A stretch of DNA of 61,610 bases, counting the filler, from Sphacelaria rigidula (taxonomy: Eukaryota), in NCBI GenBank assembly GCA_964200075.2. It is 6 parts of 6 records of this genome, joined end to end, with 100 filler letters (N's around TTAATTAATTAA, not from the genome) between each part and the next. Parts side by side here need not be neighbours in the genome. Positions count along the whole stretch, not along the records: positions 1 to 10,186 come from CAXNAA020006971.1; 5 more parts are not named here. One strand, given 5' to 3'. The notes beneath the pieces were generated by a model, which saw only the letters and a program-made list of their open reading frames with translations, did not search any database and was not told the DNA's origin. The number at the start of each line of letters is the position of its first letter. Positions within the stretch are counted from its first letter, which is position 1. The translations under genes were made by a program, and so were the position numbers. Shown here one piece after another: positions 1 to 59,736 of the stretch.

Positions 1-445
1 ACGGTGCTCCATGTGGAAAGGGAGGGGGGGGCAATGGGCGAACGCCTAAGGCAAGAAAAAAAAGAGTACCCCCCCCCCCCCCCCCTCCTAGGAGATGAAT
101 GGTGGCCACACACGGCGAAACAGGACCGGGATAAGATATGTAAAAGGCTTTTGTGTAATGTATGGAAGAAACGTTATGAGCGCCAGAATGTTGAAGGTGT
201 CTCTACTAGGAGTAGGAACGATGCTCCGTGTCGAAAGGGATGCGTGGTCAATGGTCAAACGACTGAGGCAAGCAACAAATGAGTACTCAACCCCCCCCCC
301 CCCCCCCCCCACCCCCCACCCCCCCCCCCCCCCCCCCCNNNNNNNNNNGGAGGGAGGACTATGCCCCGTGGGGGAAGGGATGCGTGGTCAATGGTAAAAC
401 TCCTGAGGCAAACAAAAAATGACTGTTCCCCCCCCCCCCCCCTCC
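1..445 (+). mobile_element. Stack of three 5'-truncated LINE (family 1) 3' ends, each ending in oligo(C)
   Basis: Three variants of the motif GGGATGCGTGGTCAATGGTC..GGCAAGCAACAAATGAGTAC, each followed by a C run (~69-87, ~291-338, ~428-445). 88-282 matches 25350-25545. Confidence 0.8.
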
Positions 446-1934: not shown

Positions 1935-2045
1935 TCGGCGGGGGCGGGGGGAAAGGTACTCGTGGTATTGTATGCCGTAGTCGTAAGACCACAGACCTCG
2001 CATCCCTACGAAGCCGGGACGGAGCACGCCGGGTTTTCGCGGAAT
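1935..2045 (-). mobile_element. LINE family 2, 3'-end fragment
   Basis: Reverse complement reads CCCGGCGTGCTCCGTCCCGGCTTCGTAGGGATGCGAGGTC...GAGTACCTTTCCCCCCG, matching 24360-24478 and 29830-29937. Confidence 0.75.
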
Positions 2046-5011: not shown

Positions 5012-5466
5012 CTACTCCGTCTGGAAAGGGATGCGTGGTCAATGTTGAAATGACTAAGGGAAGCAACAGATGGGTACGCCCCCCATCCGCCCTCTGTGGG
5101 GTTGGCGTCCGTTGGCAATGGCGCTGTAAAACACGCCACTTACTGTAGAAGCTAGGGAAACAGGTTACCCTTTTTTTCGCGCGCTTTTGTTTGTTTTTGC
5201 GGTAACCATGATGGTGGCCGAGCTAGATCATGGTGTGTAGGGTATAAGAACCTCGGTTCTGCGCGAAGGGGATGATCATACTACGTGGCATTTGAAAGGT
5301 GAGACACCCGTGAGGCATTGTGTAAGCATTGACTGTCTCTGGATTTGGCGATGCCAGAAAATGAAGCAACTCATTCGAGGCCGTCATCCAAATGCAAGAT
5401 AATCAGTGCGCTTCGGAATGAACAATATCAGCGGGATGCAGCTCACTCTTTATGCGACTCGCCGAA
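5012..5466 (+). mobile_element. LINE family 1 3' end plus C-rich tail, followed directly by a LINE family 2 fragment
   Basis: 5015-5095 carries the family 1 terminal motif. 5096-5466 matches 23935-24312 and has a GET..H....C zinc-knuckle-like remnant. Confidence 0.75.
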
Positions 5467-6480: not shown

Positions 6481-6557
6481 TAGTGGTCAAAACACTAGCT
6501 CCAAATGAGGTCGCGCCCTCTCCCCTTCCCTCCCCTTTCTAAAAACAAAAACATCAG

Positions 6558-7286
6558 AAAAGCGGAGGACGAGAAGAAGCGACGAGCGCTGGGTGGCCTG
6601 TCCCCAGACTCGGGTCCTCAGGGCAGAGGCGGCAGGGGGAGGAGAGGCCGCGGCGCCTCTAGGGGTCGGGGAGCACGCGACCGCGGAACTTCTGGAGGCG
6701 CTCATCACGCCGCGGCAGCGGGGGCACGGGCAACCCAGCAACCTCAAGAAGCTGTCGGTGGTGGGGGTGCCGACAGCGAGGGAGGGAGGGTTGGCACCAA
6801 GGGGTGCCCTGTCGACGTCACTGTTGAACAGGAAACCCTAAGCAGCAGCGATAGCGGTGCTGTAGTAATGCTATCCGCGGGTGCTGGTGGTTCTTCAGGA
6901 GGGGAAAGGGGGCAAGGCGAGGAAGGAGCGAAGCGCAGCGCTGAAGATGCCGCCCTGTCGTCGGAGACGAACACGGGGGAGACGCCTGCCAAGGTTGCTC
7001 GTGTTGCTACTGCTGTTGGTGAGGTATCGTGCGGGGAGACCGCGGCGGCGAGTGCGGGTACGGGTGGAGGCGAAAATACCGCGGCATTGGGGGGATCAGA
7101 GGCAGCCTCTGGGGTAGAGGGTGATGATGGAGGGAAGGGTCAACAGGGCGAAGCTGAGGCTGGGGGGGGGGAGGGGGGTGAAGGGACTACTGGATGGAAG
7201 AGATACTGTTCGTTTTATTTACGGGGCAAGTGCAACAAGGGAGAGGAGTGCACGTTTAGCCACGACGTGCAGCGACGAAATTGCAG
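6558..7286 (+). CDS. NUFIP1: NUFIP1/Rsa1-like protein, exon 4 (RGG-like/low-complexity linker plus CCCH zinc finger); gene probably continues beyond the contig
   Basis: Acceptor CATCAG| is phase 2 and matches exon 3 (AG|A = Arg, then KAEDEKKRR). Encodes CSFYLRGKCNKGEECTFSH (C-x7-C-x5-C-x3-H). Donor TGCAG|GTGTGT falls just after the first Cys of a probable second CCCH finger. Confidence 0.82.
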
Positions 7287-7705
7287 GTGTGTATGGGTTG
7301 ATGTGCTGCTCTTGTTGAGTGTCACGGTGGTGCGCGAGGTCATCGTTTGTTTTCCGGTGTGTCGTGTGTGTGGCTTTTTGGGGAGGGGCATGGAGGGAGA
7401 TGGTCGATTCGAAACTGAGGGGTGAATGTCTGGGATCATCATGTAAATAGTTTGCAAGTGTGTCTTGTTTTATTTTTTTCCGGTTGAATCGTGTGAGAAG
7501 TGTTTGGTTACTCTGTTGTTGAATGCTCTTGTGCCGTGTTTGACAACGCGTGGCTCGAGAGCATATTGATTAGCAAGGTGGTGGTTTTCATCGGAAGGGC
7601 GGGGTAGTCCATTTTTACTTTTCCTAGGCCGTCATCACGCCGTGAAGAACTAGTTCAAGTGTGAAAATGCATGTATGTATGTATGTATGTATGTATGTAT
7701 CGAAT

Positions 7706-10186: not shown

Positions 10187-10286
10187 NNNNNNNNNNNNNN
10201 NNNNNNNNNNNNNNNNNNNNNNNNNNNNNNTTAATTAATTAANNNNNNNNNNNNNNNNNNNNNNNNNNNNNNNNNNNNNNNNNNNN
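10187..10286. other. Artificial contig linker (also 20473-20572, 30759-30858, 41044-41143, 51328-51427)
   Basis: Identical 100-nt N44-TTAATTAATTAA-N44 spacer with stops in all six frames, separating length-sorted contigs. Confidence 0.97.
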
Positions 10287-19900: not shown

Positions 19901-21199
19901 GAAGTCAGGTATATGTTACGGGCGCGACTGATTTTCGAACTCCGGAAAAAAAGAAACGAGGAGGGGCGGGGGTGGGGTTGTGAAACAAACAGAATAGTGT
20001 TGGCCATCGTGGTCGTCCACATGCATGTCTCTACTGTACAAGTCGAGTACTAGAGCGAAACAACAACAGGATTTCGGTCATGCAGGTTACGAGGTTTTGC
20101 TAGCTCATGCAAATATGACTTACTTTTACTGTTATATATAACAGGGGATTCTATAAAATGAGGTTCATCAATGAAATGAGGTTTGAAGACCCTAGCCGTT
20201 GAGTGACAAAAAGCCCTCAGGAGTACCGCACGACGCTGCTGATGTGCAATATTTGGGAGTGGTAGGAAGTGCGTCCGTGGTTGCACATGTCGCCCACCCG
20301 TGGTTAGCTGCGGACGACGGAGCATAACAACGTTTGTTTGGTTGTCGACGATGTTTTCACTATTGTTTGTCTCGAGGCTCGTGTCCAGACAAAAATCTCG
20401 GGCGTCAAGTTGCTGTCAGTATGGTCAGTAAGGTGCTGTCAGTGACGTGGTGGGGGGGGGGGGGGGCGTAGTNNNNNNNNNNNNNNNNNNNNNNNNNNNN
20501 NNNNNNNNNNNNNNNNTTAATTAATTAANNNNNNNNNNNNNNNNNNNNNNNNNNNNNNNNNNNNNNNNNNNNTCAGGGGGGGGCGGGTGAAACGATCCTG
20601 ATCGCTTTCGTGAATCATTTTCCAGACCCTTATTTTATTTTTTCTTCTGTTCATTGCTCTCGAGCCGAACAGAAATGTGCTTTGGACCCAGAACGCTCCC
20701 TGTTTATTCCGTCTGTAAGTCGTTTAATATTGAGCGCAAAGATGATTTTTGTTCCGGCACATGGAGCGGATGCCAAGTATCTCCCGATCCCCAAGCTTGG
20801 GGATCAGGCGTTCACTGGGATGAGAGGTGGCACCAGAAAAAAACTAATGAAAATAGTCGACTACGAACATTGAAAAAACAAACTCTCCTTTTTTTTCAGC
20901 TGGAAGCATCTCAAATTTCGGGGGACGTCTACCTCGTAAACACGACTCGAGTCGTGGCAAATCAGTGCATGTGGCGACAATCAACCCATCGAGGCATTTA
21001 TCACATGATTCAATCGGTCACTCAATAAGTGAGTCAATCAATGCGTTAATCAATGAATCAATCAATCGGTTACACTTTGCGTGTTCTTTGTGTGCGTAGG
21101 AAATCGAGCCGCGACAAGAACAAAGTCGTTTCTTCATCGACTACTTTAACAATCCACGTTCCGACGAGATGCTTTCTCCGGTTTTCTCATCTATTCCCG

Positions 21200-22903: not shown

Positions 22904-23879
22904 GGCATTTTCAAGCACGCTCGGGTCTGCATGAGTTCTCCACGTCAGTTCGCCGCATTGCTTCTGTGCTATACATGACCTACCATTAAAACGCTTTCCA
23001 CGACATCGCTTTTGCAAAAACGTCCTTGGCTTACCCGACTAAAAACAACCCCCGACTTGGGGCCGAGCGGTAACACGGCCCTCCGCGCCGTAGTTGCGAT
23101 ATATGAGGTGGAAGCACGCCCAGAAGCGACCAATGATCGTCGGCGTCCACCGCGCTGCTGGACTCCCCGTGGGCGGGCTTCCCGGGAGCGATGTTATCAA
23201 CGGAGTGTGCAACGCTTACATCATCATTACCATCCTGGAAAAGAGCGGGTGAGCCTCCTCTAGGAAAAATGGTGCATCAGAGAGGGTGCAATGTGCTATC
23301 CCCTCCCCTCCTCACGCGCCCTCCTACGGGATCTTAACTTGCCCTCCTCCCAAAGCTTCCCGTAAGTGCGTGGGCTAAGTTCAAGCTATGTTTTGCAATA
23401 AGATCAGCACTTTTGTCGCGAAAAAAACAGAAAGTGGTCGTAATGATGGCATTTAAAAAAACGGAGAAGATATACTGTACGCATTTTCCATCACCTTTTG
23501 GACCATGGACCATGCCCATCCTTCTTTCTTTTCAGCATACGTCCCGTTTCTAAGTTTACCCCGGTGAAGACGGGGAAACAATCATGTTATTCTTCTTTTC
23601 CTTTTTTTTCGTTTTTCGACCTCCTTTCGAAATACCGAGAAAGTGTTGAATATGAAACCGATTCGAGCTTTTTGTCTTCGGCCAACAAAATTATGTCTGC
23701 AGTCAGAATACGTACGTTCCCTACAAAATCATTACGAGAAGTTTGCTTGGGCTCGTGTGTTGTTGGCCCTGTGGAGGGTGCTTCGGTTGTAGCCCCTCCC
23801 CTCTACAAACCCCAACCCCAACCCACCCTCCTCGTCAGACCATGCCTTCCCTACAAGATTTACTACTACGTCGTAGGAC

Positions 23880-24478
23880 CTCGGCCGGCGAAAACTCGGC
23901 GTGCTCCATCCCGGCTTGGTAGGGACGGAACTCCTATGGGGTTGGCGTCGGTTCGCAATGACGCTGTCAAACACACAACTCACTGCGTAAGCGAGGCAAC
24001 CAGCTTACCGTTTTGTTTTACGCGCTTGCTTGCGCTTTCTTTGCGGTGACGATGAAAGTGGTCGGGCTAGGTCATATTGTGCGGGGTGGGAGAACTTCAA
24101 TTCCGCGCAAAGGGGATGATCATACTACGTAATGTTTACATGGTGAGACACCCGTGAGACAGTAGTGTGTAACCCGTGGCTGTCTCTAGAAGTGGCGATA
24201 CCAGAAGATAAAGCAGCGCATCGTAGGCTGTTATCCAAATGCAAGATAATCAGTACTCTTTGGGTCCAACATTCTTAGCCGGAGGCAGCTCATCATTCAT
24301 GCGACTCGCCGAATAAATAACGGCGCTTCGCGCTTGGTGATTGACTGCGAGCGTGGTCCGGCGAAATCCCGGCGTGCTCCGTCCCGGGTTTGCAGGGATG
24401 CGAGGTCTACGAGGTCTATGGTCTTATGACTATAGCATGCATGATCATGAGTACCCCCCCCTCCCCTGCCCCCTCCCA
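23880..24478 (+). mobile_element. LINE family 2 3' portion ending GAGTAC plus C-rich tail
   Basis: Homologous to 5096-5466 and 29640-29937. Ends CATGAGTACCCCCCCCTCCCCTGCCCCCTCCC. Confidence 0.8.
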
Positions 24479-25565
24479 CATGAACAAAGTAATAAAAGGG
24501 GTAAGGCACAGATAGGCAGGATGGACGTGATCCTCAGAGACTCGCACCTAGACACTAGGATTAAGACATGTATCCTGATAAGCGTGATTGTACCAAAGTT
24601 GGAATATGCAGGAGAGGTATTGGAGGGGAACGTGAAGTTGGCGAAGAATTTGGAAACAGTATAGATGGCAGCAGCAAAGAAAATACTTGGATGCTCGAAA
24701 ACGACGAGTAAGACAGCTACAGCACTGAGAGCAGAGGTGGGAATGTACTCACTTAAAACGAACAGAGATATGAAAAAATTGCGATGGCAATATAGCTTTT
24801 AACAGCATGTAGAGAAAGAGATTGCCAGATATAGTTGATGGGGCCGTGTGGAAGAAATGTACAAAAGGGCATGCTGGAATAAGGTGGGATAAAGAAGTCG
24901 AGAAAGTATGGAAGGGGATAGGAGGAAACCAAGGCGAAATACTGTTTATAGGTAAAGACGCGGGGTACAAGACAAAAATAAGGGACATGATAGAAATGAG
25001 GGGAAAATGAGCGCTCAGACGAAAAGTAGACGAGGAAGAACACCTGGATAGAGGTGAAAGCATATTTGCATGGCCCAATGCACGCGGCGAAAACTTTGAA
25101 AGTGCGATTCCGGGTGGAAGACCTGGACCTGCCAGAAAGAAGTATATTCACCAGGAATCGGGAGGAGGAGGAAGTAGATGCACAGAATTGTCCCTGTGGC
25201 AAAGGAATAGAGAGCAGAAGTCATTTCGTGGCGGAATGTGAACTATGCAAGGAGGAACGGGACGTGCTAGAGGTGGAAATGGGGAGCGTGAACGCAGGTG
25301 GCATAAGATCGTTTGATGCACTAGATAGTAGCGAGAAAATGATGGCTATACTAGGAGATAGATGGTGGCCACAGACGGCGAAACAGGACGGGAAGAAGAC
25401 ATGTAAAATGTTTTGTGTAATGTATGGAAGAAACGTAATGAGCACCTCAATGTTGGAGCATATCTTTATTAAGAGTAGGAACGGTGTTCCGTGTCGAAAG
25501 GAATGCGTGATCAATGATCAAACAACTGAGGCAAGCACTATATGAGTACGCCCCCCTCCCCCCTA
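24479..25565 (+). mobile_element. 5'-truncated LINE family 1 (C-terminal ORF2 with CCHC-type knuckle)
   Basis: Encodes VPKLEYAGEV, then CPCGKGIESRSHFVAEC and ILGDRWW. Stop at 25545 is followed by GTACGCCCCCCTCCCCCC. Several stops and frameshifts. Confidence 0.85.
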
Positions 25566-27422
25566 ACCCCAACCCGGCGCGCCTCGTCTTCAGACCATGC
25601 CTTCCCTACAAAAGTTACCGCTACGTCGTAGCTTACGTCTAAAACTTTCTTCTCGAGGTCGGGTATGTTCAAAGAGTCGCATTCCGTCGAATGTTTTCCG
25701 GAAAGGACTGGGAACACATCTAGCTTTTGCGTAGGTTACCACGGCTGTTCCCGAATGTCCCCATCACAGGATGAGGGTTAAGTACGGTACTAGTGGAACG
25801 GAGTAGGGTTCATTCCACGGTCTCGTGAGAAAGAGGCTGACGAAGTCACAGTAATGTTTGTCCGAGGAAATCAGATGTGTGCAAAAATGTCAACGCGTTG
25901 TGTACTGAATCATTCAACCGTCTATGATTTCTTGTGAGGAAATAGAAACAAAACCGGGTGGCAAATCGTACCTTGGGATTCGTAATGAATTTCTTCGTAA
26001 TCTCAGGCGTACAACTTCACAGATGAGCAAGAACGACGCTACTGAGCAACATGACACTGAAAACGAAAGTCACGAGATACATTCCTCTATAGTCTGTACA
26101 CGCTGTAGCTGTAGCGTCTGCGTTCTTCTCTCCTGAAAAGCACGGGTCCAACAGGTGGTATCGTAGGTAGCAGTTTCGTATCCCATGACAATGTGGTCTC
26201 TACCGAAGCCCTGCAGCATTTTGTTGAGTACGCTCGAAACTCGTGAACTTTACCTTCGAAAGGGTGAAGACGCAGGTATGGGTCACAGAAGATTGGTCGT
26301 AAGTCCTATGGCCAGATTTTGAAGAGCAAGAAGCTTGAAAATCGAACAACGGTGTCGGGAGTAACGCCAGCTGCAAGTATGACCTTGGTTGTGTACAAGA
26401 ATCTCAAGGCAAATGTGTCCGCAGTCCATATGTAAATCAACGCTCTATGTTTCGCTGCAGATCTTGCTTTTAAAGTTCGTACCTGTATATAGATACGTAC
26501 GGCGTTCGAATATCCCAACCCGAATCCCCTGTGCCCATGCCAGCACGTACCGCCATTGCCCCACGTAGTCTTCCGATCGAGGACAACACATGGGAGAAGA
26601 GTTGTTTCTTTTTCTTGTATAGATGTGAGAGAGATGCGCGATTTGGTATGGATAAATCAAGTGCAGAAAGGTGGCGCATCGAAATCGACGAACATGATAT
26701 GTGCGCCGGTAACTTCCCCTCAGAGTGTGATTCTTAGCTGTTACGTCGTAGTTTTTTTCGAGGGTCGTTCACCACTCTCTACGGTCGTTGTGCGCGTCAG
26801 CGGCAGGGTATATATATATATATATATATTGGGCGGGGGGGGGGGGGGGGGGGGGGGGGNNNNNNNNNNTGCTGGTGTAGGTCCGAATAGGATCCGGCTG
26901 GGGGGCGCGCGGCCGGGGTCGGAGAAGTACCGGTCGCCGGTACGAGGCACGTGGGATACATTAAGCGAGCCAGCGAGAAGAGACGGCGCGGATTTTTCGT
27001 TCGATCGTGTTATGCAAGATACAGGTTCAGAAAATAGTATCCTGTTCCATGCATACGTGTGCAAACGCGGGAGGAAAGACTCCGCGAGCTCATACTCCAC
27101 GGGTCCCGAGAACGGAGCGTGCGCACAGATCGATAACGAGTCATTCCGCTCTCGCTATATAAGCAGAGAGAACCAGAGAGCTAGAGAAGAGAGGAGAAGG
27201 GAGGTAGAGGGAGACAAAGACAAAGACGGAGACAGAGGCAGAGATAGAGAGAAAGAGAGAAAAAGAAAGGGGGGGGGAGATAAAGGGAGATAGAGAGGGA
27301 GAGCATGGGGTCGGTTCAACTTATTTTGAGAGCATGAGCTGAGCGAGTATCCTCGTCGATATACTGCGCAGGAAGCGAGAGCAAGCACACGCTACGCAGT
27401 TCTCCTACTTCGTATACGTATA

Positions 27423-29589: not shown

Positions 29590-29937
29590 CCTGGGGCTGT
29601 CCCTGGAAGTCCCTGCAACCCACATGAGGCAGTGTGCAAGCTGTGGCTGTCCCTGGAAGTGGCGATACCAGGAAATGAAGCAACTTATTCGAGGCTGTCA
29701 CCCATGGGCAAGATGCTTAGTAGGCTTCGGGCAGAACAATCTGAGCAGGATGCAGCTCACTCTTCATGCGACTCGTCGAGCACACCACGGCGCTTCGCGC
29801 TTGGTGGATGATTGCGAGCCTGATCCGGCTAAAACCCGGCGTGCTCCGCCTTGGCTTCGTAGGGATGCGAGGTCAATGGTCTCACAATATGACTATGGCA
29901 TGCAGAGTCATGAGTATACTCGGCCCCTCCCCCTCCC
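29590..29937 (+). mobile_element. 5'-truncated LINE family 2, starting just after a C-rich tract
   Basis: Homologous to 24175-24478. Ends GAGTATACTCGGCCCCTCCCCCTCCC. Confidence 0.78.
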
Positions 29938-31899
29938 GCGACAATAAGCTCGATTTCTCCGAATACAATCGGTCGGCACGCGACCGAAAGTTCCGCTTTT
30001 TCGAAAATACGTTCATGGAGTGATAGATGTATCTCTTGGGAATGCACGATGAAACATTCTTCCCTCGAATATGTACCGCCGCGCCTGGATGGTCGAAGCG
30101 TTGTATCAACCCTACTTTGAGCAGATTTTGCAGGTTTGAATCCCGACAATACGGTAAAGTCCACCGGTTCATGTTTCCAGTTGTTTGCAAGTGCGAGAAG
30201 ATACATGGGTGGAGATAGTAGCAGCATTAGATGAAGGTCAACAACGAGCTGCTGAAGTGCGGATCTGATGAACTGCTGAATACTTGAGCGAGTGCAGCAC
30301 GGGTACCGGAGGAGAAAAGGTTGATTCCTTCCTTGAGACCGCTTTCCGGGCTCGTCCCGGCAGAGGGCGCATTGTAGCGCTGGTCTACCTTTACGTGTAT
30401 CCGGTGTTCACCGGGTCGTCGGCGACTTTCATATGGTGTTGGCGATGATCCGCCGTTATTCTCGAGAATTCGTTTTAGTTGGAACGAGGGCAGGTCCTGG
30501 CATACGAAGTACATACTCAGCACCGTTCCATCGCCATGCGCAAATGTCGTGTGTGTTAGGTGGGTCGTGGTGTTGACTGCCTGAGAGTGTAGGAGTTATT
30601 TGATCTTGTAGAAGTATTATTGTACTCTTAGCCCTCCCCCAGTGAAGGGAAGGGGTGGACAATGCATGGCATAAATGCCAAGACCTACTGCACTCATGAA
30701 AGAAACACCTTACCGATGACCGACCACATGACCTAAGAGAAAGAGCATCAAGCGTTACNNNNNNNNNNNNNNNNNNNNNNNNNNNNNNNNNNNNNNNNNN
30801 NNTTAATTAATTAANNNNNNNNNNNNNNNNNNNNNNNNNNNNNNNNNNNNNNNNNNNNTGCGTGTACCTGGGTTGCAAACCCTGAAATAAAGCTTGGGGA
30901 ATAATTCGTCACGAGTCGACTCATGATACTAAAACCAAGTAACTTTCAGACGAATCATTATTTGTCCGACCCTTGGAAGTTTCCCCTTGGTGTTTTCTTC
31001 CCGCACACATGCTTTTGGCCGCTTGTTTGGGCGGTGGGTTCTGGTGGGACGCGCATCGTTTTTTGGCACTGAAAAGGCACTCGCAATAGAAGAGCTGTCT
31101 GTATCGACATGTAGGTGATGTGCGGGACAAATGGGTCACAAAAACTTGGTGCGACAATTGGAGTGAATTTTCATCAGGGATATGAAGGAAACTTTCCCAA
31201 AAAGCCTGTTGAAAAATATTTGTGCTTCGCGATTCCGCGCTTGCTTGGCGAATTGTGCCACCTCGCGGTCCTGCTGTGCTTTCCCTCGAAGATTCCAGTG
31301 CCTTTCCGACCTTTTCTTACGCCCTTTTTTACTCTCGGCTGCATTCCTCGCGAACGATTTACCTAACCGCCGACAAAAACCTTCGAGCTCTCCCCCGTGC
31401 ATGCCGACGATCTGAGAGAAATATGCTCGTACCCTTTTTTTCGGGGTTACTTGAGGAACCGTTGGTCCGACAAGTAAGAGTCAAACTGGGCCCACGAAGG
31501 ATCGGGAAAGTGCGCTACCCGCCCAGAGATTACAACAGCAAATCTTGTTGTTCCTGGGAGGCACAATCCGTCGAACCCCGTATTCCGACGAGAATTGGCA
31601 CTGAGGCGCCAATATAGTTGTTGTTCTTAGATGTTTTTTTCCGAAGCACGAGACGCGGCCCCACACGATATTTCTGTACCCTGATCCGACGCCAGGCAAG
31701 GACCCCGCACGAATAAACGACAGGATGCTGCTGCCTGCACGTGTTGTATATGGCATCCAACACCACAATAAATACGAGTATCCGTTTCATGCACTCGTAG
31801 TGAAACGGGAGTTCAGTCGGAAAGGCAAGGGTTCGTAACTATATGCTCTACTTTGGAAATCATCATTAACATTTTCTTTAGTAAGATAGACACGAGTTG

Positions 31900-40784: not shown

Positions 40785-41043
40785 CACCCCCCCCCCCCCC
40801 CAGTGGTCAATGGTCAAACGACTAAGGCAAGCACGAATGAGTACGCCCCCCCCCCATTCTCCTCCTCCCCTCGGCTCCGTCTCGAAAGGAATGCGAGGTC
40901 AATGGTCAAACAACTAGGGCAAGCAACAAATGAGTATGCCTCCCCTCCCCCCCCCAGGGGACCAGTGAAATTGAGAGCAGAGTTGGGAATGTACTCACTA
41001 AAAACAAACAGGGACATGAGGAAATTGCGATGGCAGTATAGCG
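40785..41043 (+). mobile_element. Head-to-tail stack of LINE family 1 fragments separated by C-rich tracts
   Basis: C run, ~45-nt 3' end, C run, ~70-nt 3' end, C run, then the start of a third, longer copy (GAGAGCAGAGTTGGGAATGTACTCAC, cf. 24727). Confidence 0.82.
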
Positions 41044-41199
41044 NNNNNNNNNNNNNNNNNNNNNNNNNNNNNNNNNNNNNNNNNNNNTTAATTAATTAAN
41101 NNNNNNNNNNNNNNNNNNNNNNNNNNNNNNNNNNNNNNNNNNNTGGCAGGTCGTCTGACACACTTATGAGCCTCTTTTTTCGTGCAACCAAATACCCCC

Positions 41200-42183
41200 C
41201 CCTCCCTATCGTAGGATGACTCAAGGACGGGTGCCTCAGTCATCATTTTTTTCATTTTCTCGAAGGCTTCATCATGTTCAGTATTCCAGAGTTTCGACAC
41301 TTGTTTTGCCGCCCCTTTTTTTCGTGAAATCTACCAGTGGTGCTATGGTTGTAGCCAAGTCTGGTATGAATTTCCGTCCGAAATTTATTGTACCGAGTAC
41401 GGATCTCAACTCTTTGATATTTGTGGGTTTCGGCAAGTCGAGGATTGCTTTTATTCTTTCATCACTCACTCTGATGCCATCTGCGGACAGTACATGACCC
41501 AAATATTTGACATGCTTTGGACCAAATTGGATTTTTGTCGGCTTTAGTGTAAGGCCTGCTGTTTGCAGTGCTTGGGACGTGCTTTCGAGTAGGGTGAGAT
41601 GACTCTTCCAGCTTGATGAACAACAAATTATGTTATCCATATATACTAGTAAGCCACTCTTAGGTCCGAAGTGTGCAAATGCTAGGGCCATTATGCGTGA
41701 GAAGATAAAGGGTGAACAAGATAAACCAAATGGTAACCGGTTGAACACCCATTTCCCTCTCTGAGTTACAAACGCTGTTTTCTCTTTTTCGCTTTCCGCT
41801 ACTGGTATCTGGTGGAACGCACTTTGTACATCGCAAACTGTTATCAATTTTGCCTCCGCTACTGTATCTATGTGACTTTCGATAGCTGGCATGGGCCATG
41901 ATTTGCGAATCAAGTTTTTATTTTTTGCTGCTCGATAATCTACGCAAAATCGTGCTGTTCCATCTGCTTTTGCGACTATTGTAACCGCTGATCCCCACGG
42001 GCTTCGGCGTTGTTCGACTATACCATCTTTTCCCATTTGGTCGACGCATTTGTCGATTGCGTCTTGCACTTTGGGGTTTGTTCTATATGGTGCTCGGTCT
42101 ACCGGCTGAGTCTCAGGTTTGAGCGGAAAACATGCTTCATCTAACGTACAACAGCCCAACTCCTGCGGATTAGGTGAAAACAC
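41200..42183 (-). pseudogene. pol: gypsy reverse transcriptase and start of the connection domain
   Basis: Classic gypsy RT motifs, but catalytic YxDD reads YMDN. Frameshift near 41310, then W..EH.EAFEKMK. Confidence 0.92.
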
Positions 42184-43445
42184 AGAACGGTATTTTGCGC
42201 AAAGATCCAGTATTTGTGAGCATTGTTCCGGGGGAAAAGTCGTACTTCGAAAGCTTTGCGTAAAGCCGGACGTAATTCCTCTTTCACATTTTTTCTCTCT
42301 GACACCTCATTTCCCGCCGTTGCACTGTCTGTAGCTGGTTTTGTTTCTCGTACTGGGGTGATATAGCCTAAAATCGTATTACGTTTCAGGTTCACATGTC
42401 GATTCGACGGATTCGCGATTTGTACCATTGCCGTCTTATTTGTTGCCGACCATGTGCACACCGTCCTTGCAACGATGATGCCCGTGAACGCTTGGGGTAC
42501 ATCGGTTGATCGAATGTCTTCTTCGGTTATAATGCGTGGCTCTACGACGGCTGCTGTTGTTCTTGACGGGGTATTTTCCGTTTCAACTAATAGGGCCATC
42601 TCACTCTGCGGGGGCACGTTGCATTTCTTCGTGAGAAAAACTGGAACAGCGTTAGAACAGTTCACACTGACTACAGAACAATGTGTCGTTCCGGGGTGTG
42701 TTGTATTTTGTGAACGTCGTTGTTTTCGATGCGATGCTTTGACTTGTACACTGGAGTCGCGGAATGTTAGCTCTTCCGCTTGCCAGTCGAGTATAGCTTG
42801 GAAAGCACTCATAACGGAATTGTCCAGTAAACGGCAATCCGGTCCTAGGTTAGGTAATACGAACGCTTCTACTGGTAGGGTTTTTATCCCTAACGTAAGT
42901 TCAAAACGTATGAAACCTAGAATTTTCATGGGTGAGCCGTCCGCACTCCTGAGGTCTATCGAATCTGGCGGTACTGGTTTTATATCAGCTGCCATTATGG
43001 CCGGGTGTTCATCGACGAACGCTTTGCTGATACAGGGCACGTCTGCTGCGGGATCGATTGTGATTTTTTTAGCGGGAGTGCCGTTTACTCTGGCTGTGAC
43101 TCTCACACGGGCTGATGCACAGGACAGTGCTAAAGGTGCAACTGTATATCTGGCAAGCGAAGATGCGTTGTAAGAGCCATAACAATAATCATTTAGGATC
43201 GGGTTTGAAAACGAAGATTGGTGTTTCAATTTTTTATTTTTCTGCAATGAGTTACTCACAAAAGCCGCCTGCGGAGCTAAAAATATACGTTGCGTCTGTT
43301 CTACGCATTCGCTATTTGTACTCTGCCCTCTGCTGCTATGCTCCTGCTCGTGCTCATCCCGCACATGGTTGACCTCTACCCAAGACCTCTTGCGCACTCT
43401 CCGTGGTTGGTCTGCCGTACTGTCAGAAAAATGAAACTCTCCCAC
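42141..43445 (-). pseudogene. pol: gypsy aspartic protease region of pol
   Basis: RVNG...ITIDPAADVPCIS (degenerate D-S/T-G-A site), SADGSPMKILG and LLDNSVM. Confidence 0.8.
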
Positions 43446-43559
43446 CTTACGAGCCAGAGGGTTGACGATTTCGCGTCCTTCTGTTACCTCGATTTTCTAC
43501 GTAACGATTTACCGTTTCTGCCCTGATCAGACGAGGGGTCTTCTCTTGGGCGCCTTCAC

Positions 43560-45369
43560 GGGTTGTACTTTTTAGCAAACTCTACATGGCTTTGCATAAG
43601 GCGGCAATCCGCTGTCTCGTGTGTGTTTTTGTACCTGCATGGTGCGTACTCACAAGGGACCGAGTTTTTTTCATTTTACCGCTCAACTGCTTGTCGTTGG
43701 ATGTACCCTTATCGTTACTGTCTTTGAAGCGTAATTTTTTCAACTCTCTCCCTGATCTATTCGCGCTCCTGTCTCTGCTAGCAGACCGTTTCTCCACTCT
43801 CCCTCTCTCTCCTTTGATCGCTTTTAACTGCGACTGAAGATCCGTGAGGATTGCGCCATGATCGGCTGTCATTTCCGCTAGCTGTGGACGTGGGGAATTG
43901 ACAGTTGCGGCCGAGACATGGGGAGTGTCTCCCGTTTGGTTTGGCCATGTGCGAAGATTGTTTTGTTCGTGTTTTTTCGCTCGTGCTGTCGCAGTTTGGA
44001 AGTCGAGCGCACTATCTTCTCTCACCATTTCAACTCTGATATGGGGTTTGAGCCCGGTCTCAAATGCTGCTGTTCTGATCACGTCTATTATGAAGCGAAG
44101 GGTATCGTGGCCAGGGAATTTCACCCGCAAGGCTTCGGTCACGAATCTGTCCATCGAAATCGTACACTCCAGTGCATAGTCGTCTACGTTCTGATCTTCT
44201 TTCTGTTTTAGATCGGCTATCGCACGGGCTAACAGTGCTAGTTGGTTTGGTGGAGAGAAGCGATGAGTGTAGGCCGCTACCCATTCTGTCCATGTTTTCG
44301 GGGCGATGGGTGCGGTATCTTCTCCTCTCGATTTGAGGTCCTGCAGTACGGCCAGTGGACGCCACCCTACTTGTCCGCTCCCGAGAGGGGTGTATAGCTT
44401 TTCTGCTGACCCTCTGAGAATAAGTGGTAAGTGTTTCATGGCGTGCCGTTGTACTGTGGATTCTGTGCAATGGTCAGGGGCATGAAGCCTAACTCGATTG
44501 AGAAACGCATCAAGAACTGCTGGCACGTCCTCACTCCGTTTTCCTTCTAGGATTAACGTTGATGGAAGATCCGATTGTTTCATCGAATTTGTTTGAGTTC
44601 TCATGGTACTACTATGGCTTGTAGATGGCGGAGTCAGCACTGAACTAGACAGAGGCTCTATGTTGTGGCTGTTTTCTTGTACATTAGTGACGCTTGTTGG
44701 CGAATCTGACGTCAAAGTTCCTAAGATCTCTGCGGATTGGATCGGTGTAGTGTTAGGCAGTTCCACCTCGAAATTATCGACTGGATCATTGACACTATCC
44801 TGGGGTTTACTTGTATTGTTTAGTAGCATCGTACTGTTACTTATATGTTCTATTTCCGACGCTACTGGGTTGCTCGATTTCGATACCTGTGAAACTCCCT
44901 GTTCCTGCGGTACTGAAAACGCCAAAGCTTGCATCACCCACGGAGCTGGCTCCGTGCCCTCCTCGTCACTCCTCTCCAACACCCTATATATGAGCTCTGC
45001 TGCCATTTCTTTGACGGTGGGTTGTGGCGTAGGGGTTGGTGTAGAGGATGAGGATAAATTGGTGGGGTCGCGAAGCTCATCAAACCTACCGGTGGACACC
45101 CGACGGATATCGGTGCTCCGCTCACAGTCCTCGGAGTTGTCGCTGTCGCTTTCCCCCTCGTGGCTATACGGGGGTTGAGCGGGCATCGTTGTGTCGGCCG
45201 GCGCAGGTACTACTGACTGTGCTGCGCCTCTGGACTCTGCCGATTTCGCCGCCGAGGTGGAAGCTGATGGTGTGACGGCCGCGGTTTGATGTTGGAGGGT
45301 CTTCGCGGTGGCCCTTCCCTGAGTAGTTGTTCTGGTGGATTTTTTGTGGGCGGATTTCTTTCTCGGCAT
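43560..45369 (-). pseudogene. gag: gypsy gag with a frameshifted C-terminal zinc knuckle
   Basis: 595-aa ORF with TWTEW..F, LKQKEDQNVDDY and FETGLKPHIR (retrotransposon gag motifs). An alternative frame encodes CEYAPCRYKNTHETADC. Confidence 0.85.
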
Positions 45370-45415
45370 TATGAAAGACGTGGGCCCTGCTACTAGATGT
45401 CTTACTTGAGTTCTA

Positions 45416-45429
45416 ATCTGGTGTCGCCA
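45416..45429 (-). promoter_or_regulatory. Primer binding site (TGGCGACACCAGAT; tRNA-Arg-like, tentative)
   Basis: Starts 1 nt after the LTR's terminal CA on the minus strand and begins TGG, the complement of tRNA CCA. Confidence 0.75.
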
Positions 45430-45430
45430 G

Positions 45431-45794
45431 TGTAAGGAGGACGTATCACAGGGGGGACAGACTAAGGAAGAGGCTGTCCCAAGAGATATCGTTCTGATGC
45501 CGAAGGAACTCCGAAGCTAATGATGATATCCTCTTGTGAGATGTAGGCAAGAAGTGGGTCAGACACAGAGTGGTCGCTGGAGGCGACCGCGTTCCTCGGG
45601 GAATGTTGGACCGTCCTGAATATTAGGCTCTTCCTGGCATCACCCCGAGTTGTCTAGTTTCCTTGGCATTACAGGGTCCTCTCGGGGAATCTGGTCCTTC
45701 CGGAACGTTCCTACCTCGTCCCTGGTTGCACTGGGTCTGTATACATGTGTAACATCAGTCTCTGATATGTCATTGCAAAGGGATATCTCCCACA
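45431..45794 (-). repeat. 5' LTR, ~364 bp
   Basis: TGTAAGGAG ... CTCCCACA ends (TG...CA, imperfect inverted). Abuts the PBS on one side and an unrelated repeat on the other. Confidence 0.72.
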
Positions 45795-51327: not shown

Positions 51328-53264
51328 NNNNNNNNNNNNNNNNNNNNNNNNNNNNNNNNNNNNNNNNNNNNTTAATTAATTAANNNNNNNNNNNNNNNNN
51401 NNNNNNNNNNNNNNNNNNNNNNNNNNNCTTCCCCCCTTTTCTGAGTGCGCGCTTCGCGCCCTCTAACTCTCGACATCCAACATCCTGCCCCCACACCCCC
51501 CCCCCCCCCCCCCTCCCCCTCTGCAAGCCAAAAGACACCGATTCCGTGCCGTTGGAAGATCTCAACGAGGTCGTGCCATGAGTTCCCCCTCTAGACAACG
51601 TGACCATCGCAAATATTCTTCAGGGTCGAGGTGGCAAACCTCCCGCTCGGAGGTAGAGTACCTCATCGCATTGCGTAGCATCCTTGGCTCTCTGCAAGAT
51701 AACAACTTTGTGTCTGTGCTTCGCGTCTGCTTGTTCCACCCTCATGCTCCCCGTTGACTCGACCACCAGCACCGTCGCGGCGGAGGTAGACGCATTGGGA
51801 ATGCAGGAGGTGGCGGTCAACGTAGGGCTTGTCGGCACTGTCACGCGGATGTCGTACTCGACGTGTACATGCGCTCCAACAACTTCTTCGGCTGGCGGCT
51901 GGGGACCGGCACTACGAGCCAGGAAGGCGGCGGTTTTGGCGGCGGCGGTGGTTTCGGAAACGATGGTTGTTTGTGCGGGCAGATCGGCGTATCAGCAGTC
52001 AAAACTGTCTTTGTCGACGAAGATACCGGATTCCCCCGGTCCAAAGTCATCGAGGCTGTCCCGACGGCGCCTAGAGTCAACCCGTTTGTCCGCCGCGCAG
52101 GAGCAGCCGAGAACGTTCAAGTGCCCGCCGGTTTCCACGGAATGGCGCGACGGGGCCACGGCGGTGGCGGCGGCGGAATGTATACCAACAGTGATGTGAT
52201 GCAGAGACAATTGGTGGTACACGGCGTGATGGGACGGGATGCGTGGATGCTGTCGTCGGCTCTCCCTGTGGAGTTGGGCAACGTGACAGTCGCGCGAATG
52301 ACCGCGCTGTTGTTTTCGCCATCACTCCGTGACGACACTGCCCATTCTCTGCTGGCGTTAGACTCACGTCGTTCGCGGGATACACAGATCGCGACGACGC
52401 GTCATCGTAATGTCCTATTGGAGACGATTATGGCCCGGATGATGTCCAACGAGGTACGACCAGAGGTGATGGCGCCGACGTTCCCTCCGACCATGCCGTG
52501 GAGGAGTCCTCTTCCGCAGTGGACGTCACGCATCATCACGTTTGGGGATTGGGGATTGGGCGGCGCTCATAGACTGGCAGGTAGCATCGGCGTCGGCGTC
52601 GGCAGCGGTGGCTTTCCTCCGAGAATGGCTACGGGTGGTGATGGGCGGTCGACCCCCGCCACGTCCGAGATGAGTCTGATCTTCGGCAATGGGGTAAGGG
52701 TACTGAAGCTCAATGTGCATAATCTTGCACCTGCTTTCGTGTCTGTTTGTTCGTTCCGTATTTCTCGTATTTTGGCCCGTGACAGATGGAGGTCGATATG
52801 GAAAATCTGGCAATTTAGGAATTTGAAGGTTACTGACATCGAAGTAAACTGCAGTCGTTTCTTCTGCATGAAAAACAGCAACGGCGCGAAATAGAAAATA
52901 TTCGAAGGATTGGTAGACCAACAGGTGGTCAAGCCGCTCCGTCATTAGACCGGCTACCCTGTGGTACCGTGTGTGGCGATTTTTGCCTTCGTGTGATGTA
53001 GGTGCCCTCGCGGTAGTGTTGGTTGCTGCATGCTGTGAGGCATATGACAAAGCTATTTATGTATCGCTTTCGGCGGAGGTGTTCCTTATCGGCGCGCCGT
53101 AAAGGGAGGACATAGTTCGAGTGTTTCGTTTGCCTCCATTTCTACGCACCTCCCCTGGGTCCACCACGGGCGTTTTCAAGAAGATTGGGACGAGTCCTTT
53201 CACATCGGCCACGTCAGCGTCTTGCTCAGACTCGCCCTCTTCGTTTTGTCCTAGAGCTAGTTGT

Positions 53265-55098
53265 CGCCAAAGAAGCTCAAATTGCCTTCAAGTGTAACTC
53301 GAAGCCGATTTCCAACAAACAAGTACAAAAACACTCGCAAAAGAGTCGTGCTACGGCAGGGGTGCACGTTTTGCGTGACACTTGTCTGATGTATTTCCAC
53401 GTTGTGAAACAAAACAGAGACATATTTCACAACTTGTCATGTTAGTCTCCGAGAGGATCGCCTCAACTTCCACCGCAACTTCGTCCTAACTGCACTGGTG
53501 CAAGTAGATGATAGTTTTTGACTACCTCCAGCACGCCGACCCAGGAGCATTTTGTGCACGCCTATCGGACCACGGCTCAAAATTATGTGGTGTTCTGTGT
53601 CCCTTGCTTCAACAGACATGCGGGGTATTTTGTACCGTTACGAGTCCTATAATCTGGGCCACTGGGCCGGGTAGATTCGTGGATGAAACGGTCAAATCAT
53701 CGGCATATCCGTATCTGTGCCCGAGGTTTTGCTTCCGTCGATTTCAGGTGTGAGTTGGTGAGAGGAATCCACGCACGCGGCGGAAATAATAACAACCACA
53801 TCGACCCCAGCTGTGAATACGCGACCGGTTGTTCGGTTGTGGTCAATACGCTCGTAAGGACTGCCTGTCGATGGAAACACTTGTAGCGGTGTCTGACATC
53901 CAATCAGTGCGTTGTGTTTTTGCTCGCATCTCATTTTTGTTGCGACCGCCCCCTTCTCTTCGCGCTCCGGCCGCTGCCCATACGTCGCGCTGCACTCGCA
54001 CGATCCAAAAACGCAGGTCACTGCCCCCCCCTCTACCCCTGCATGTCCGACGATCGGTGGCGTCATTTTCTCTTCTTTCTACCACGAGCAGTCTGAAAGC
54101 TCGAGCCCACCGGGAGCCTGCCAAGCCGCTCAAGAGGGTGTCAGTTACGCTCCCCTCCCTGCTGGGCAAGAGCAACAGCCTTGGGAACCCCGTCCAGAGT
54201 TTCCGTTTGTACAGCAGCAGCAGGAGGAACAGCAGCACACTGGACCGGTGTCGGAGCAGGGTGCTGGATCCTCGGCTCGGTCTCGGCCGCTGCTTCAGCG
54301 TATTATACACCAAACTTCTGCACGATTGACGGCTGAACCCTTTTGTGCGGCGGCTGGGGGGTGGTGGGGTCGGGAACAGCAGCAGCAGCAACAACAGCCA
54401 CAAGCGGGGCCGGTGTCAGATCATGGGGCGCAGGTCTCGCCTGAGCTCAGACAGCGATTTCAAATTGGAGTACACCAGCCGACGGGGAGACGGACGGCTC
54501 AACCCTATCTTGGGGTGGCTCGGGGGCGGCGTCGGCTACGGCAGCAGGAACAGCGGCAGCAGCGGCAGCAGTGGCAGCAGCAGCAGCAGCAACAACAACA
54601 ACAACAACAAGAGCCACGAGCCGGCGATAGTGATGATGACTCGTACTCGCCAAGTTGCGACAGCGGATCGTCTATTTGCGGAAGCGATGATGATGTTGAT
54701 GAAGCCAACGCCCGGACATCATCCGGTGGGCGGCAGCAGCAACCGACTTACCCCTCCGCGGCCGTGCAGGAAAATGAGGAGATGGATAGCGACGACGAGC
54801 ACACCGGGCAAGACTTCCCTACGGAGACAGCATCTCCTTCTTTCACGCAGCAGCAACCCGCCATCTCTACTGTTCAGGCTTCGCCGTCGTTGTCTACGGA
54901 AGATACGGCTGGAATCCGTTCTACGACTGTCGCTTACACAACACCTGCACCGCTGCTGGCACCGACGGCCCCGGTGCCGACGGTGGATGCGTTGGCCGAG
55001 GCACCATTGACATCGGCAGCAGGAGGGGACAAAGATAGCCGTTCAGGAGGGGCACGTGCGTCTGTGGAAGTTCCTGTGAATCCGCGACCTCCGTACGG
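53265..55098 (+). mobile_element. Truncated paralogue of the 5' part of the Mutator-like element
   Basis: 53265-54815 is collinear with 58395-59973, then diverges into a T/A/P-rich segment ending at donor GG|GTAAGA (55098). Confidence 0.75.
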
Positions 55099-56645
55099 GT
55101 AAGAGTAGGAGACTTACCGAACCAGAAGATGGGACAACCTGTGTTTTCCTCCGTGTGTATACCTTGTGTTATGTTGGCATCTTGTCTTGAGGGAGTGCAG
55201 CGGTTGCTGCTATTAATGTTTAGGCCCGTGTTTGTTCTTTCCCGTGTGCCTCGGCGCTGAATTTCAGTTGCCCTGAAATGGTTTGTGTACCGCCGTATGC
55301 ACAGATCGTACTGCATCCGTGCCACACGACACAAAGCAGCGCAACGACCACGGCAAACACATCACACGAAACTCGACTGATTTGGAGCGATGACCTATCA
55401 AACCAGCCATGCGCGGATATCAGTTGGTATCTAACGCTGCACGAGCCAGGCATGACCTGCTTGTGGATTATACGGATACGCGATATCTGTTTCAACATTG
55501 GTGGTCATCGGTGACTGCGTTCTTTGTCTGCCTCGTTTCGGTTGTTGCTCCCCCCATTTTCTCTTTCGTTTTTCCAGTTCCGTTTCCTTGTCCTGGTTTT
55601 TTCTCTACTTGTTTTTCTCTTCTTTGTCTGGGCCGTGTTGATGTTTGTGTCTCGCTGCTGCAGAGCTGGCGGGGTAGAGGTCCTGCCCAAACAGTGCGGT
55701 TGCCAGATAGCTGAGCCTCGACCTGGTTCCACGGTATATTGTTTGGCACGACGTCCTGACGAGAAGCCCTTACAGGGTCCTGTCGCTGTGTGTGTCTGGA
55801 CCGGCAAAACACAAGATGCTGATCTGACTATCTCTTTTTCTGCCTATTTTCTTTCTCGGTTCACGCTGTCTGCGTGTTCCTTCTTTTTCTTTCATCATTA
55901 CAGCTAACATTTTGTCTTGAGTTTCCTCCCGTGAATATTGCCATATGTATACCCTTAGGTACATCTACCTATCTTGTGACATGGCCACGGCTAGACTAGG
56001 AGCGGGTCAGTCAATGTGCGACAATCGTTAACTCGACCGATCGACCGTATCAAGATAGCGAGCTTTCGTCGCTCTATCACCCGAGACTATACATTTACGA
56101 CACCTTATGGTATCTGTTTTCGTGTACATCTTGTTGTAGGCAAGGGGCATTGCCGATGTCGATACGGCAACCGCTGATCATGGTGGAACGACGAGGTAGG
56201 AGTGCATCAGTCGGGTCGAGGCGGCAGCAGCGGCGACTGCGTCGGCCAGGGGCCGGATCGACATCGCCGACAAGGGGCGCTTGTCAAGCTCGGGGTCGAA
56301 GTGTGACCAGACGCTCGTCTACTGTACTCCATAGTGGGCACGCGGTCGAGGTGAGAGGGGCCTGATAATCGTCTGCACTGTAGCTGTCGCTGGCCTCATG
56401 GGCGTATACTGTGCAGAGCCATGTTTAGGTACAGGCGGCGTACGAAACACTGATTTTTAATTCATTATTGAGGTCACTGGATGAAGTACAGGCTCAAATT
56501 TACAGCCCTGATCCTCTGAGTGAGGTATGCGCTCCGAAATCAGACACGAATTTTTCAGCACACTACCAAACCTCATGCTGGGCGGCGTCCTACAATGTGG
56601 ATCGCTATTTGTGTTGAACAGACAGTTCTATAAAATGAGGTTATA

Positions 56646-57245: not shown

Positions 57246-59084
57246 GCAAGGGCTACGGGGTTGATTGACAAGTACTGGTCTGAAACAGACTTGGTTACAT
57301 TGTGCATTCTCGTGTTGTCTGTCGACTTTGCTTTTGTTGGGTGTCACGCTCAAAGACGATGTTGTCGGGAAGCCTTTGTCCGTTTCAGATCACAGCACTT
57401 GTTTGATAGCTTTTACTTCCGACCTTTGCGTGTTTTGTGTATTGATGATCTAGTTCTTCTTCGAGCGCTCAATAACGATCAGCTTCCTACCACGTCCCCT
57501 GCCCCCCTTCCCTGACCGCCGATGTCAACTATCCTACTTTCCGATTTCGCACGACTATGTGAACACGACCTCAGCACGTCCAAACCTAAACAGGAGTTGG
57601 GATCGGAAAACCTTCGAGGCCAGAAATCCTAGTGACCAAAACAGGCCTTGGTAGGCAGTTGGTGGAGCATCCGTACCCCGAAAATTCGTTGTACTGTGTC
57701 CATCTGCTAAATGCCGACCATGAAGTGGCCGCCATGGTCTAATATGTATGCTGCACGGTGGCTTGGTCGAGGTCACTGCTTTGTGCATTACTCTAGCGCC
57801 CCAGGTGTGTACGTGTGCACAGAACTCCCCACTTGCATTCCCACGATGCACGGCTCGGGTGCTTACCATGAAATATCGTATGATGAGACCAAAGCCGCCA
57901 GGTAAACATGCATCATGATGTCGACACTACACCAGTGGTTCACGTCCTCTTTGTGAATCTTTCCGTCCCCCCGTGATGGTTTGTGCCGGAACAAAGTAAA
58001 CAGAGGAAGGTCCAGGCCCCGTTGCCAAGTCGCATCCTTCACTCACCGAATCACAGGCGGGACACACAGCACCAGATTCAGGGCGAATGAGCGACTCCGA
58101 CAGCGCGGCAATAGTTGATTAAGTGATCATTAGATGACCACTCAACTCTTGCCGTGCTGTAGGAGTCGCTCGCCCGCCCTGCTCGCGGTGATGTATGTCC
58201 CGGATGTGACGCGGTGAGTGAAGGATGCGATATGACAACCTGGATAGACGCAACATGTGGAATGACTAAAAGTGCTAGTGGTACTTGTGTCCTGTCGCCC
58301 GGGGTACGTTGTCGGTGCATGATGCCAATGCCCTGGGTATTGTGGAAAAAATATCAATCGAGAACATCGACAATTATGCATAGAAGTCCATGTTCACCAA
58401 CATAGAATCTAGAACAACTGCCTTGAAATATTATTCGAGGCTGATTTCGAATAAACAAGTACGAGAAAAATCGCGAAAGAGTCGTGCTACGGCAGAGATG
58501 CACTTTTTGGAATGAAACTTGTCTGACGTATTTCCACGTTGTGAAACAAAACGAAGATATTTTCCACAACTTGTCATGTTTGTCCCCGAGAGGATCGCCT
58601 CAACTTCCGACGCAACTTCGTCCTAACTGCACTAGTGCAAGTGGACGAGAGGTTATGACGAACTCCAGTACGCCGGCCCAGAAGAATTTTGTGCACACGT
58701 ACCGTAGCACCACTCAAACTCGTGTGGTATTCTGCTTCCCTCACTTCAACAGACATGCGAGGTATCTTGTACTGTTACGAGCCCTATAGTCCGGGCCGGG
58801 TAGATTCGTGGATGAAACGGTCAAATCATCGTCATTCCCGTATCTGCGCCCGAGGCTTTGCTTACCTTCGCACTTGCTTCCGTCGATTTCAGGTGTAAGT
58901 TGGTGGCAGGAATCCACGCACGAGGCGGAAAAAGACAACCACATGAATCCCAACTGTGAATATGCGACCGGTTGTTCGGTTGTGGTCAATACGCTCGAGG
59001 AGATAGCCAGTCGATGGAAAGTCTTGTGGCGGTGTGGACATCTAATCAGTACGTTCTATTTTTGGTCGCACCTAATTTTCTGTT

Positions 59085-59699
59085 GTGACCGCCCCCTTCT
59101 CTTCGCGCTCCGGCCGGCGCCCCCACGTTGCGCTGCACTTACACGGTTCGAAAATTCAGGTCACTGCTCCCCCCTCTACTCCGGCATGTCCGATGGTCGG
59201 TGGCGTCATTCTCTCTTCTTTCCAACACCAACCGTCTGAGAGCTCGAGCCCACCGGGAGCCTGCCAAGCCGCCCAAGAGGGTGTCAGTTACACTCCTCCC
59301 TCTGCTGGGCAAGAGCAACAGCCTTGGGAACCCCGTCCAGAGTTTCCGCCTGTACAGCAGCAGCGGCAGCAACAGCAGCACACTGGACCGGTGTCAGAGC
59401 AGGGTGCTGGATCTTCGCCTGGGTCTCGGCCGCTGTTTCAGGGTAATAGACACCAAACGTGTAGACGATGGACGGCTGAATCCTATAGTGCGGCGGCTGG
59501 GGGGCAGTGGCGTCGGGAACAGCAGCAACAACAGCAACAGCACACGGGGTCGGTGTCAGATCAGAGGGCGCAGCTCTTGCCCGAGCCTAGACAACGATTC
59601 GGTATGGGAATTCACCAACCGACGGGGCGACGGACGGCTCAACCCTATCTTGCGGCGGCTAGGGGGCGGCGCCGGCTGCGGCGGGAGCAGCAGCGACAT

Positions 59700-59736
<37 letters not shown>

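Follow-up and report, generated by a model that had tools for sequence, protein, structure and literature searches.

C tracts in place of poly(A) at the 3' ends of a LINE family and its non-autonomous partner in Sphacelaria rigidula

Sequence features of the window

The window, meaning the whole 61,610-nt stretch of Sphacelaria rigidula DNA that was analysed, joins separate contigs through 100-base spacers (44 N, 12 bases, 44 N) at 10187-10286, 20473-20572, 30759-30858, 41044-41143 and 51328-51427, and neighbourhoods across these spacers are therefore not real. Exons with C2H2-type and CCCH-type zinc fingers are found on the plus strand at 1165-1908 and 6499-7425 and probably belong to host genes with repeat-rich introns. 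Ty3/gypsy-like LTR retrotransposon frames occupy 41278-45516 on the minus strand (RVT_1 E-value of 8.6e-26 in 41278-42303), and two similar Gln-rich open frames at 53897-55102 and 59076-60716 resemble copies of a single repeat or gene; the latter frame also contains a long stretch rich in Asp. Homopolymers of at least 10 nt comprise 15 C/G runs versus 3 A/T runs.

Copies of two families of non-LTR elements, termed here A and B, recur in the window, on the plus strand unless stated otherwise. The first is a short degraded family A 3' end (1..68; 80% identity over 69 nt to 88-290 by blastn), followed by a C tract (69..85) which is both the tail of this copy and the target of the next one, a 5'-truncated family A copy at 88..286 that is 85.5% identical to 25351-25549. 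The ORF stop TGA of the latter lies inside its terminal GAGTAC (280-282), and the C tract behind it (291..338) adjoins an N gap at 339-348, which makes its length unreliable. Another short degraded family A copy (358..427, 85% over 65 nt) is likewise followed by a C tract (428..442). A family B 3' end with its C-rich tract lies on the minus strand at 1937..2040, appearing as a G tract at 1937-1951 on the plus strand, and a family A mini-insertion of about 65 nt with a C-rich tract (5015..5092) precedes a family B body.

Further along, a near full-length, non-autonomous family B copy (23880..24473, C tract from 24454) is directly followed by a 5'-truncated family A copy that retains the C-terminal coding part (24480..25550, stop codon at 25543-25545). 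This composite is flanked by a duplication of about 80 nt, whose 5' copy starts in a C tract (23791..23878, 81% column identity to 25548-25650) and whose 3' copy, together with a C tract, spans 25551..25635. Duplications elsewhere are far shorter, and a long one of this kind was seen at this one place among 254 loci; the composite may have arisen in a single insertion during which the template was switched. The 3' part of another family B copy is found at 29650..29936, with a C tract from 29924. A target-side C run (40787..40801) precedes two tandem family A mini-insertions (40803-40845 and 40874-40938), both with a C tract behind them and together spanning 40803..40955. Finally, 41180..41222 holds an empty target, composed of a host repeat and a C run without a LINE, whose paralogues elsewhere are filled by A or B.

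The first-pass annotation of the window had proposed that the 3' ends of two LINE families stop at or near GAGTA(C/T) and run into C-rich tracts, on the basis of ten sites, of which 69, 291, 428, 5078, 25552, 40846 and 40939 belong to family A and 1955 (minus strand), 24455 and 29924 to family B. At each of the ten, a family 3' end does lead into a C-rich tract, and poly(A) is found at none. The terminal motif proved less uniform, with four ends degraded or offset (GACTGTT at 428, GGGTAC at 5078, TTT before the Cs at 1955 and a spacer of 5-6 nt at 29924). Several tracts had been said to abut N gaps; among these ten, only the tract at 291-338 does so.

Genome-wide 3' ends of family A

The genome (244 Mb in 27,214 contigs) was searched with a family A 26-mer that ends short of the tail and thus does not select for it. 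There were 2025 exact matches, as compared with 0 for the reversed control, and CCCC occupied positions +4 to +7 in 1463 cases, 741 forward and 722 reverse. Requiring A7 within 10 nt of the 26-mer left 6 matches, which represent 4 sites, and at 3 of these the A7 lies behind a C tract. A sample drawn from the first 100 matches listed (30 loci and 57 stretches, omitting 12 matches less than 150 bases from a contig start) yielded 89 distinct sites, 87 of them with 60 nt of flank. These 87 tail-blind sites read ACG and then C at 86-93% from +4 to +9, with the C excess returning to background by about +25; the tracts differ in length between copies and are often interrupted by T, A or G. A search whose query contained the C tract was excluded from the tail statistics. 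Moreover, the possibility that full-length copies continue past the C tract to a poly(A) end can be set aside, since all 8 near-full-length copies with a 3' flank stop at C and 0 of the 8 carry poly(A), the two shortest tracts among them having 3 or 4 Cs. The C tails at family A 3' ends are therefore real.

An origin of the tracts in sequencing or assembly, through two-colour poly-G calls or homopolymer error, had been named as a danger to this observation. One window tract does adjoin an N gap, locus L141 contains a pure run of about 60 nt and many family A matches lie at contig ends. However, the tracts are equally frequent on both strands, they are mirrored by the 5' duplications described below, and a C tract is present in all five foreign contigs that reach the element end (3 metagenome contigs and 2 contigs filed in bacterial assemblies; a sixth ends before the element end). 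Four public runs, which stem from up to four studies, also have contigs with C-rich loose ends at the same place; these runs were examined as contigs, with an RNA status that is mostly guessed, and inform on junction forms, neither on transcript ends nor on expression. Additionally, (C)n ends are annotated in a near-gapless Ectocarpus assembly (PMC12477816). With both strands, foreign contigs and mirrored duplications in agreement, an artefact is very unlikely as the source of the C tracts, and only the length of the longest pure runs adjoining gaps is suspect. The family A pieces in assemblies labelled as bacteria are most likely algal contamination.

Family A as an autonomous LINE

The frame at 25030-25545 retrieves full-length relatives, among which P0004 (1360 aa) contains Exo_endo_phos and RVT_1 domains, that is, an APE-type endonuclease and a reverse transcriptase (RT), and also bears a C-terminal Cys/His motif. 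This is the single endonuclease and RT ORF of the RTEX-1/2_Ec32 type. Two copies from the genome itself, L241 and L242, match P0004 over residues 1 to 1360, with identities of 45-84% in the individual segments, and carry stops and frameshifts. The stop codon TGA is placed inside the terminal GAGTAC, and family A therefore has no 3' UTR. Three near-full-length copies have a common 5' head behind C-rich flanks; measured from this head in two of them, the element is about 6.05 kb long in L241 and about 5.8 kb in L242. A tandem array of 63-nt units lies upstream of the ORF, where the degraded copies present no frame longer than 161 aa.

The named eukaryotic relatives of family A come from Ectocarpus and Sphacelaria, including a protein named as from Ectocarpus sp. 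which matches the last 455 residues of P0004 at 71% identity and has a similar end. A search of viral contigs for relatives of P0063 found none. Assignment to a clade from a PDB search was rejected, as the best match, L1 (E-value of 6.6e-21), and the close R2 (8.8e-20) were not separated. Family A is probably an autonomous brown-algal LINE and the counterpart of Ectocarpus RTEX-1/RTEX-2, with a clade label that derives from matching descriptions. Another RT-bearing locus has (CAA)8 downstream, like the Ectocarpus RTE.

Family B as a non-autonomous partner

A family B 25-mer has 1707 exact matches in the genome. Family B ends read ACA and then C, with C4 within 14 nt of the end in 24 of 30 copies and A6 in 0 of 30. 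The head motif was found in 7 of 30 copies, and measured from it the element is 556-565 nt long; it carries a repeat of about 45 nt near both ends. No ATG frame exceeds 87 aa in the 5 copies tested. Compared with full-length A, the 3' 40-70 nt are 74-85% identical and the 5' 40 nt or so 76-85%, and the likeness is restricted to this 5' head and 3' end. An Rfam scan of 23800-25700 returned nothing near the gathering score, and hence no known ribozyme or tRNA head is recognised in family B. Judged by its sequence, family B is a non-coding, non-autonomous partner of A and not a second LINE, so that of the two LINE families originally proposed, A stands as such and B becomes a partner of about 565 nt.

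Mini-insertions and the 3' domain

With regard to copy length, 33 of 70 family A copies measure 59-67 nt to the pattern end and start at or near TGCTCC. The public-run contigs have this boundary as well, along with flanks rich in C and tandem joints 68-75 nt long. A boundary common to both families was considered and is not supported, with 0 of 23 family B copies showing it, and an origin of the 63-nt boundary from C microhomology was also discarded, as many such junctions have non-C bases. The boundary coincides with the point where the resemblance between A and B begins, and also with the start of a predicted 3' RNA fold made of a closing stem and two hairpins. When one typical A copy is compared with one typical B copy, a single change is seen among 32 stem bases, which preserves the pair, and the two loops are different. 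The fold has z-scores of -1.1 to -2.1 and was derived from these same sequences; a mixed A and B alignment recovers it in part, with a weak consensus that comes partly from misalignment of the first loop. A shared folded 3' domain may thus be regarded as a weak lead.

Target sites and duplications

The 5' junctions were mapped against long copies. C5 is found at most 30 nt upstream of 49 of 71 family A 5' junctions, G5 upstream of 2 of 71, and C5 in 4.3% of 1049 control windows; 19 of 23 family B 5' flanks also have C5. With the threshold set at the 95th percentile of mismatched flank pairs, duplications exceeded it at 26 of 70 family A sites and 6 of 23 family B sites, the other 44 family A sites having none above threshold. 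Thirty sites with at least 4 unique bases were taken as supported by a duplication. In these, the unique part of the duplication is 5-16 nt long, the duplications begin inside the C run, and the target run has at least 3 C in 25. Among the loci examined for one host repeat, 7 sites are empty and 10 have A or B in the C run (counted by eye), and a second host repeat behaves likewise, also by eye. As the empty paralogous sites keep the C run, these runs pre-date insertion, and part of each tract is therefore duplicated target and not tail.

Setting 3' tract against target run across the 30 sites gives 13 in which the tract is over 2 nt longer, 13 in which the two agree within 2 nt and 4 in which the tract is shorter, a comparison blurred by the slippage of mononucleotide runs after insertion. 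Of the 13 longer cases, 8 are clear by eye and 5 are doubtful alignments; in clear examples, a target of 3 Cs corresponds to a tract of 14 (L119) and one of 5 to a tract of 15 (L102). Shorter tracts point to nicks inside the G run, and extra 3' Cs to either of two sources, the RNA or slippage at initiation. The latter would suffice if there were no C tail, the endonuclease cutting C/G runs, the tract being target DNA and the surplus arising by slippage at initiation or later. This reading agrees with targets that are C runs and are kept at empty sites, and with a 3' tract of at most the target run plus 2 in 17 of the 30 sites. However, it has to accommodate the 8 clear sites with 4-17 extra Cs, where some targets have just 2-3 C and are unlikely to expand, as well as a run that begins within the same four positions in 1463 of 2025 copies, and we consider it unlikely. 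The RNA most likely supplies C at the junctions.

Some sites depart from the common pattern or add to it. At L106 a duplication is present but the 3' junction lacks a C tract. L096, L134 and L166 are single cases in which pairing extends past the C run, to a target CG or to a G preceding it, and no clear enrichment emerged. Insertions nested in the tail of another A or B copy account for 8 of 70 family A and 4 of 23 family B sites. Frequent targets of both families are host repeats with the CTACGATAG motif beside a C run, in both orientations; these repeats are found in the window at 41180-41222 and in L004, L051, L080, L081, L121, L199, L205 and L216. They are abundant and may be the ends of a DNA transposon. 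Telomere-like TTAGGG/CCCTAA hexamers lie at most 14 nt from 4 of 70 family A 5' junctions (L096, L097, L115 and L163), placed in L096 between the duplication and the element, and also occur in the 3' flanks of L206 and L112; they could reflect telomerase acting on a free end.

A model for insertion at C runs

The reading that we consider probable is that of an autonomous family A and a partner B whose C-tract RNA would be primed by a G-ended strand at C-run targets. The protein may recognise a folded RNA 3' end of about 65-70 nt common to A and B. The bottom strand would then be nicked at or inside the G run, as the junctions suggest, and the G-ended primer could pair with the RNA's C tract behind GAGUAC(G/A). 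Cutting of the second strand some 5-16 nt beyond the C run would yield the observed duplications, consisting of Cs and 5-16 unique bases. The Cs of the RNA are most likely transcribed from the genomic C tract of the donor itself, a step with less support than the others, and no C-adding enzyme would then be required. If reverse transcription starts inside the C tract, a downstream poly(A) would remain uncopied. Every insertion would create a new C run, hence the nested and tandem copies.

Pairing between tail and target is a published model for L1, CR1, L2 and RTE junctions (PMC6007223). The G/C mirror of L1 priming put forward in the first-pass annotation fits the C-run targets, the duplications starting from the run and the extra 3' Cs, and has to be amended in that part of each tract is target DNA; so amended, we infer that it accounts best for the junctions.

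C-tailing of mRNA is known in green-algal mitochondria. In a full analogue of L1 poly(A), the RNA would be cut after GAGUAC(G/A) and then receive untemplated oligo(C) from a nucleotidyl transferase, in line with that precedent, with the surplus Cs at some junctions and with tract lengths that vary from copy to copy. Nonetheless, the tracts are short, reaching background by about +25, and are often broken by T, A and G like genomic tracts, and each donor already precedes a genomic C run, which leaves the enzyme unneeded; untemplated addition is thus decidedly unlikely. The same low probability is given to its fuller version, in which the cut RNA acquires untemplated oligo(C) in the nucleus or cytoplasm, the endonuclease is truly specific for G runs and the domain of about 65 nt is a minimal retroposon in its own right. 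If true, the system would mirror L1 completely in G/C terms and be a main source of brown-algal C/G homopolymer runs.

These elements provide a natural test of whether the target choice of a LINE follows its RNA tail by pairing, with the base pair opposite to that of L1. Should G-run specificity reside in the pairing or in the endonuclease, they would also offer a compact system, with a recognition element of about 65 nt, to study or redirect target-primed insertion. Furthermore, a C-tract LINE may help to explain the surplus of C/G runs in the window and the many copies at contig ends.

Comparison with known systems

The first-pass annotation knew of no description of such tails. The Ectocarpus elements RTEX-1, RTEX-2 and RTEX-N1 are, however, listed with (C)n ends or C-rich target-site duplications (TSDs) in a 2025 supplement (PMC12477816), where RTEX-1_Ec32 is described as 'single EN-RT ORF; (C)n 3'' with a 'C-rich' TSD and RTEX-2_Ec32 with '(C)n termini/TSD' (supplement MOESM3). 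The RTEX label is based there on blastp to Repbase, and the article passages covered contain no discussion of the tail, no junction analysis and no mechanism. A literature search, in which Repbase and most subscription journals lay outside coverage, found no study of C-tailed LINEs. The trait is thus already annotated in Ectocarpus, and the junction statistics and the mini-insertions of about 65 nt were not found in print.

By description, family A resembles RTEX-1/RTEX-2_Ec32 in its single EN-RT ORF, (C)n 3' end and C-rich duplications, as well as in length (5.5-5.9 kb versus about 5.8-6.05 kb), whereas the Ectocarpus elements belong to another genome and are older, broken copies (PMC12477816). 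RTEX-N1_Ec32 is a non-autonomous element of 604-607 bp with C-rich TSDs and tandem copies, a 60-bp 3' end 83% identical to the LINE and weak 5' homology to RTEX-2 (PMC12477816). Family B shares with it the LINE-derived 3' end, the weakly similar 5' head, the tandem copies, the lack of coding capacity and a size of about 600 nt, and differs in its 556-565 nt and in the repeat of about 45 nt near both ends. Some RTEX members carry an esterase ORF1 (PMC3905857), unlike the Ectocarpus members, which are listed with a single ORF (PMC12477816). The tails of green-algal RTEX elements, namely (CA)n, (CAA)n, (CCAT)n, (ACAATG)n and (CTTGTAA)n, are not poly(A) either, but none of the six ends in (C)n (PMC3747384, Table 3).

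LINEs and SINEs of the RTE clade have (GTT)n, (CAA)n or T-rich tails (PMC6007223). The likeness lies in a repeated tail base that is also the first TSD base, in the base pairing proposed and in SINE partners that share the 3' end; in the rows covered, however, the tails are T/A runs and the first TSD base is T or A (G being uncertain in a few), as opposed to the C homopolymers seen here (PMC6007223). With mammalian L1, family A has in common a homopolymer tail, a duplication starting in a run of the same base, and APE and RT domains. L1 nevertheless combines poly(A) with relaxed recognition (PMC3747384), while family A has oligo(C), one ORF and no 3' UTR. Neither the poly(A) tail of the L1 clade nor its relaxed recognition without 3'-end sharing with partners applies to family A, whose 3' end is shared by B.
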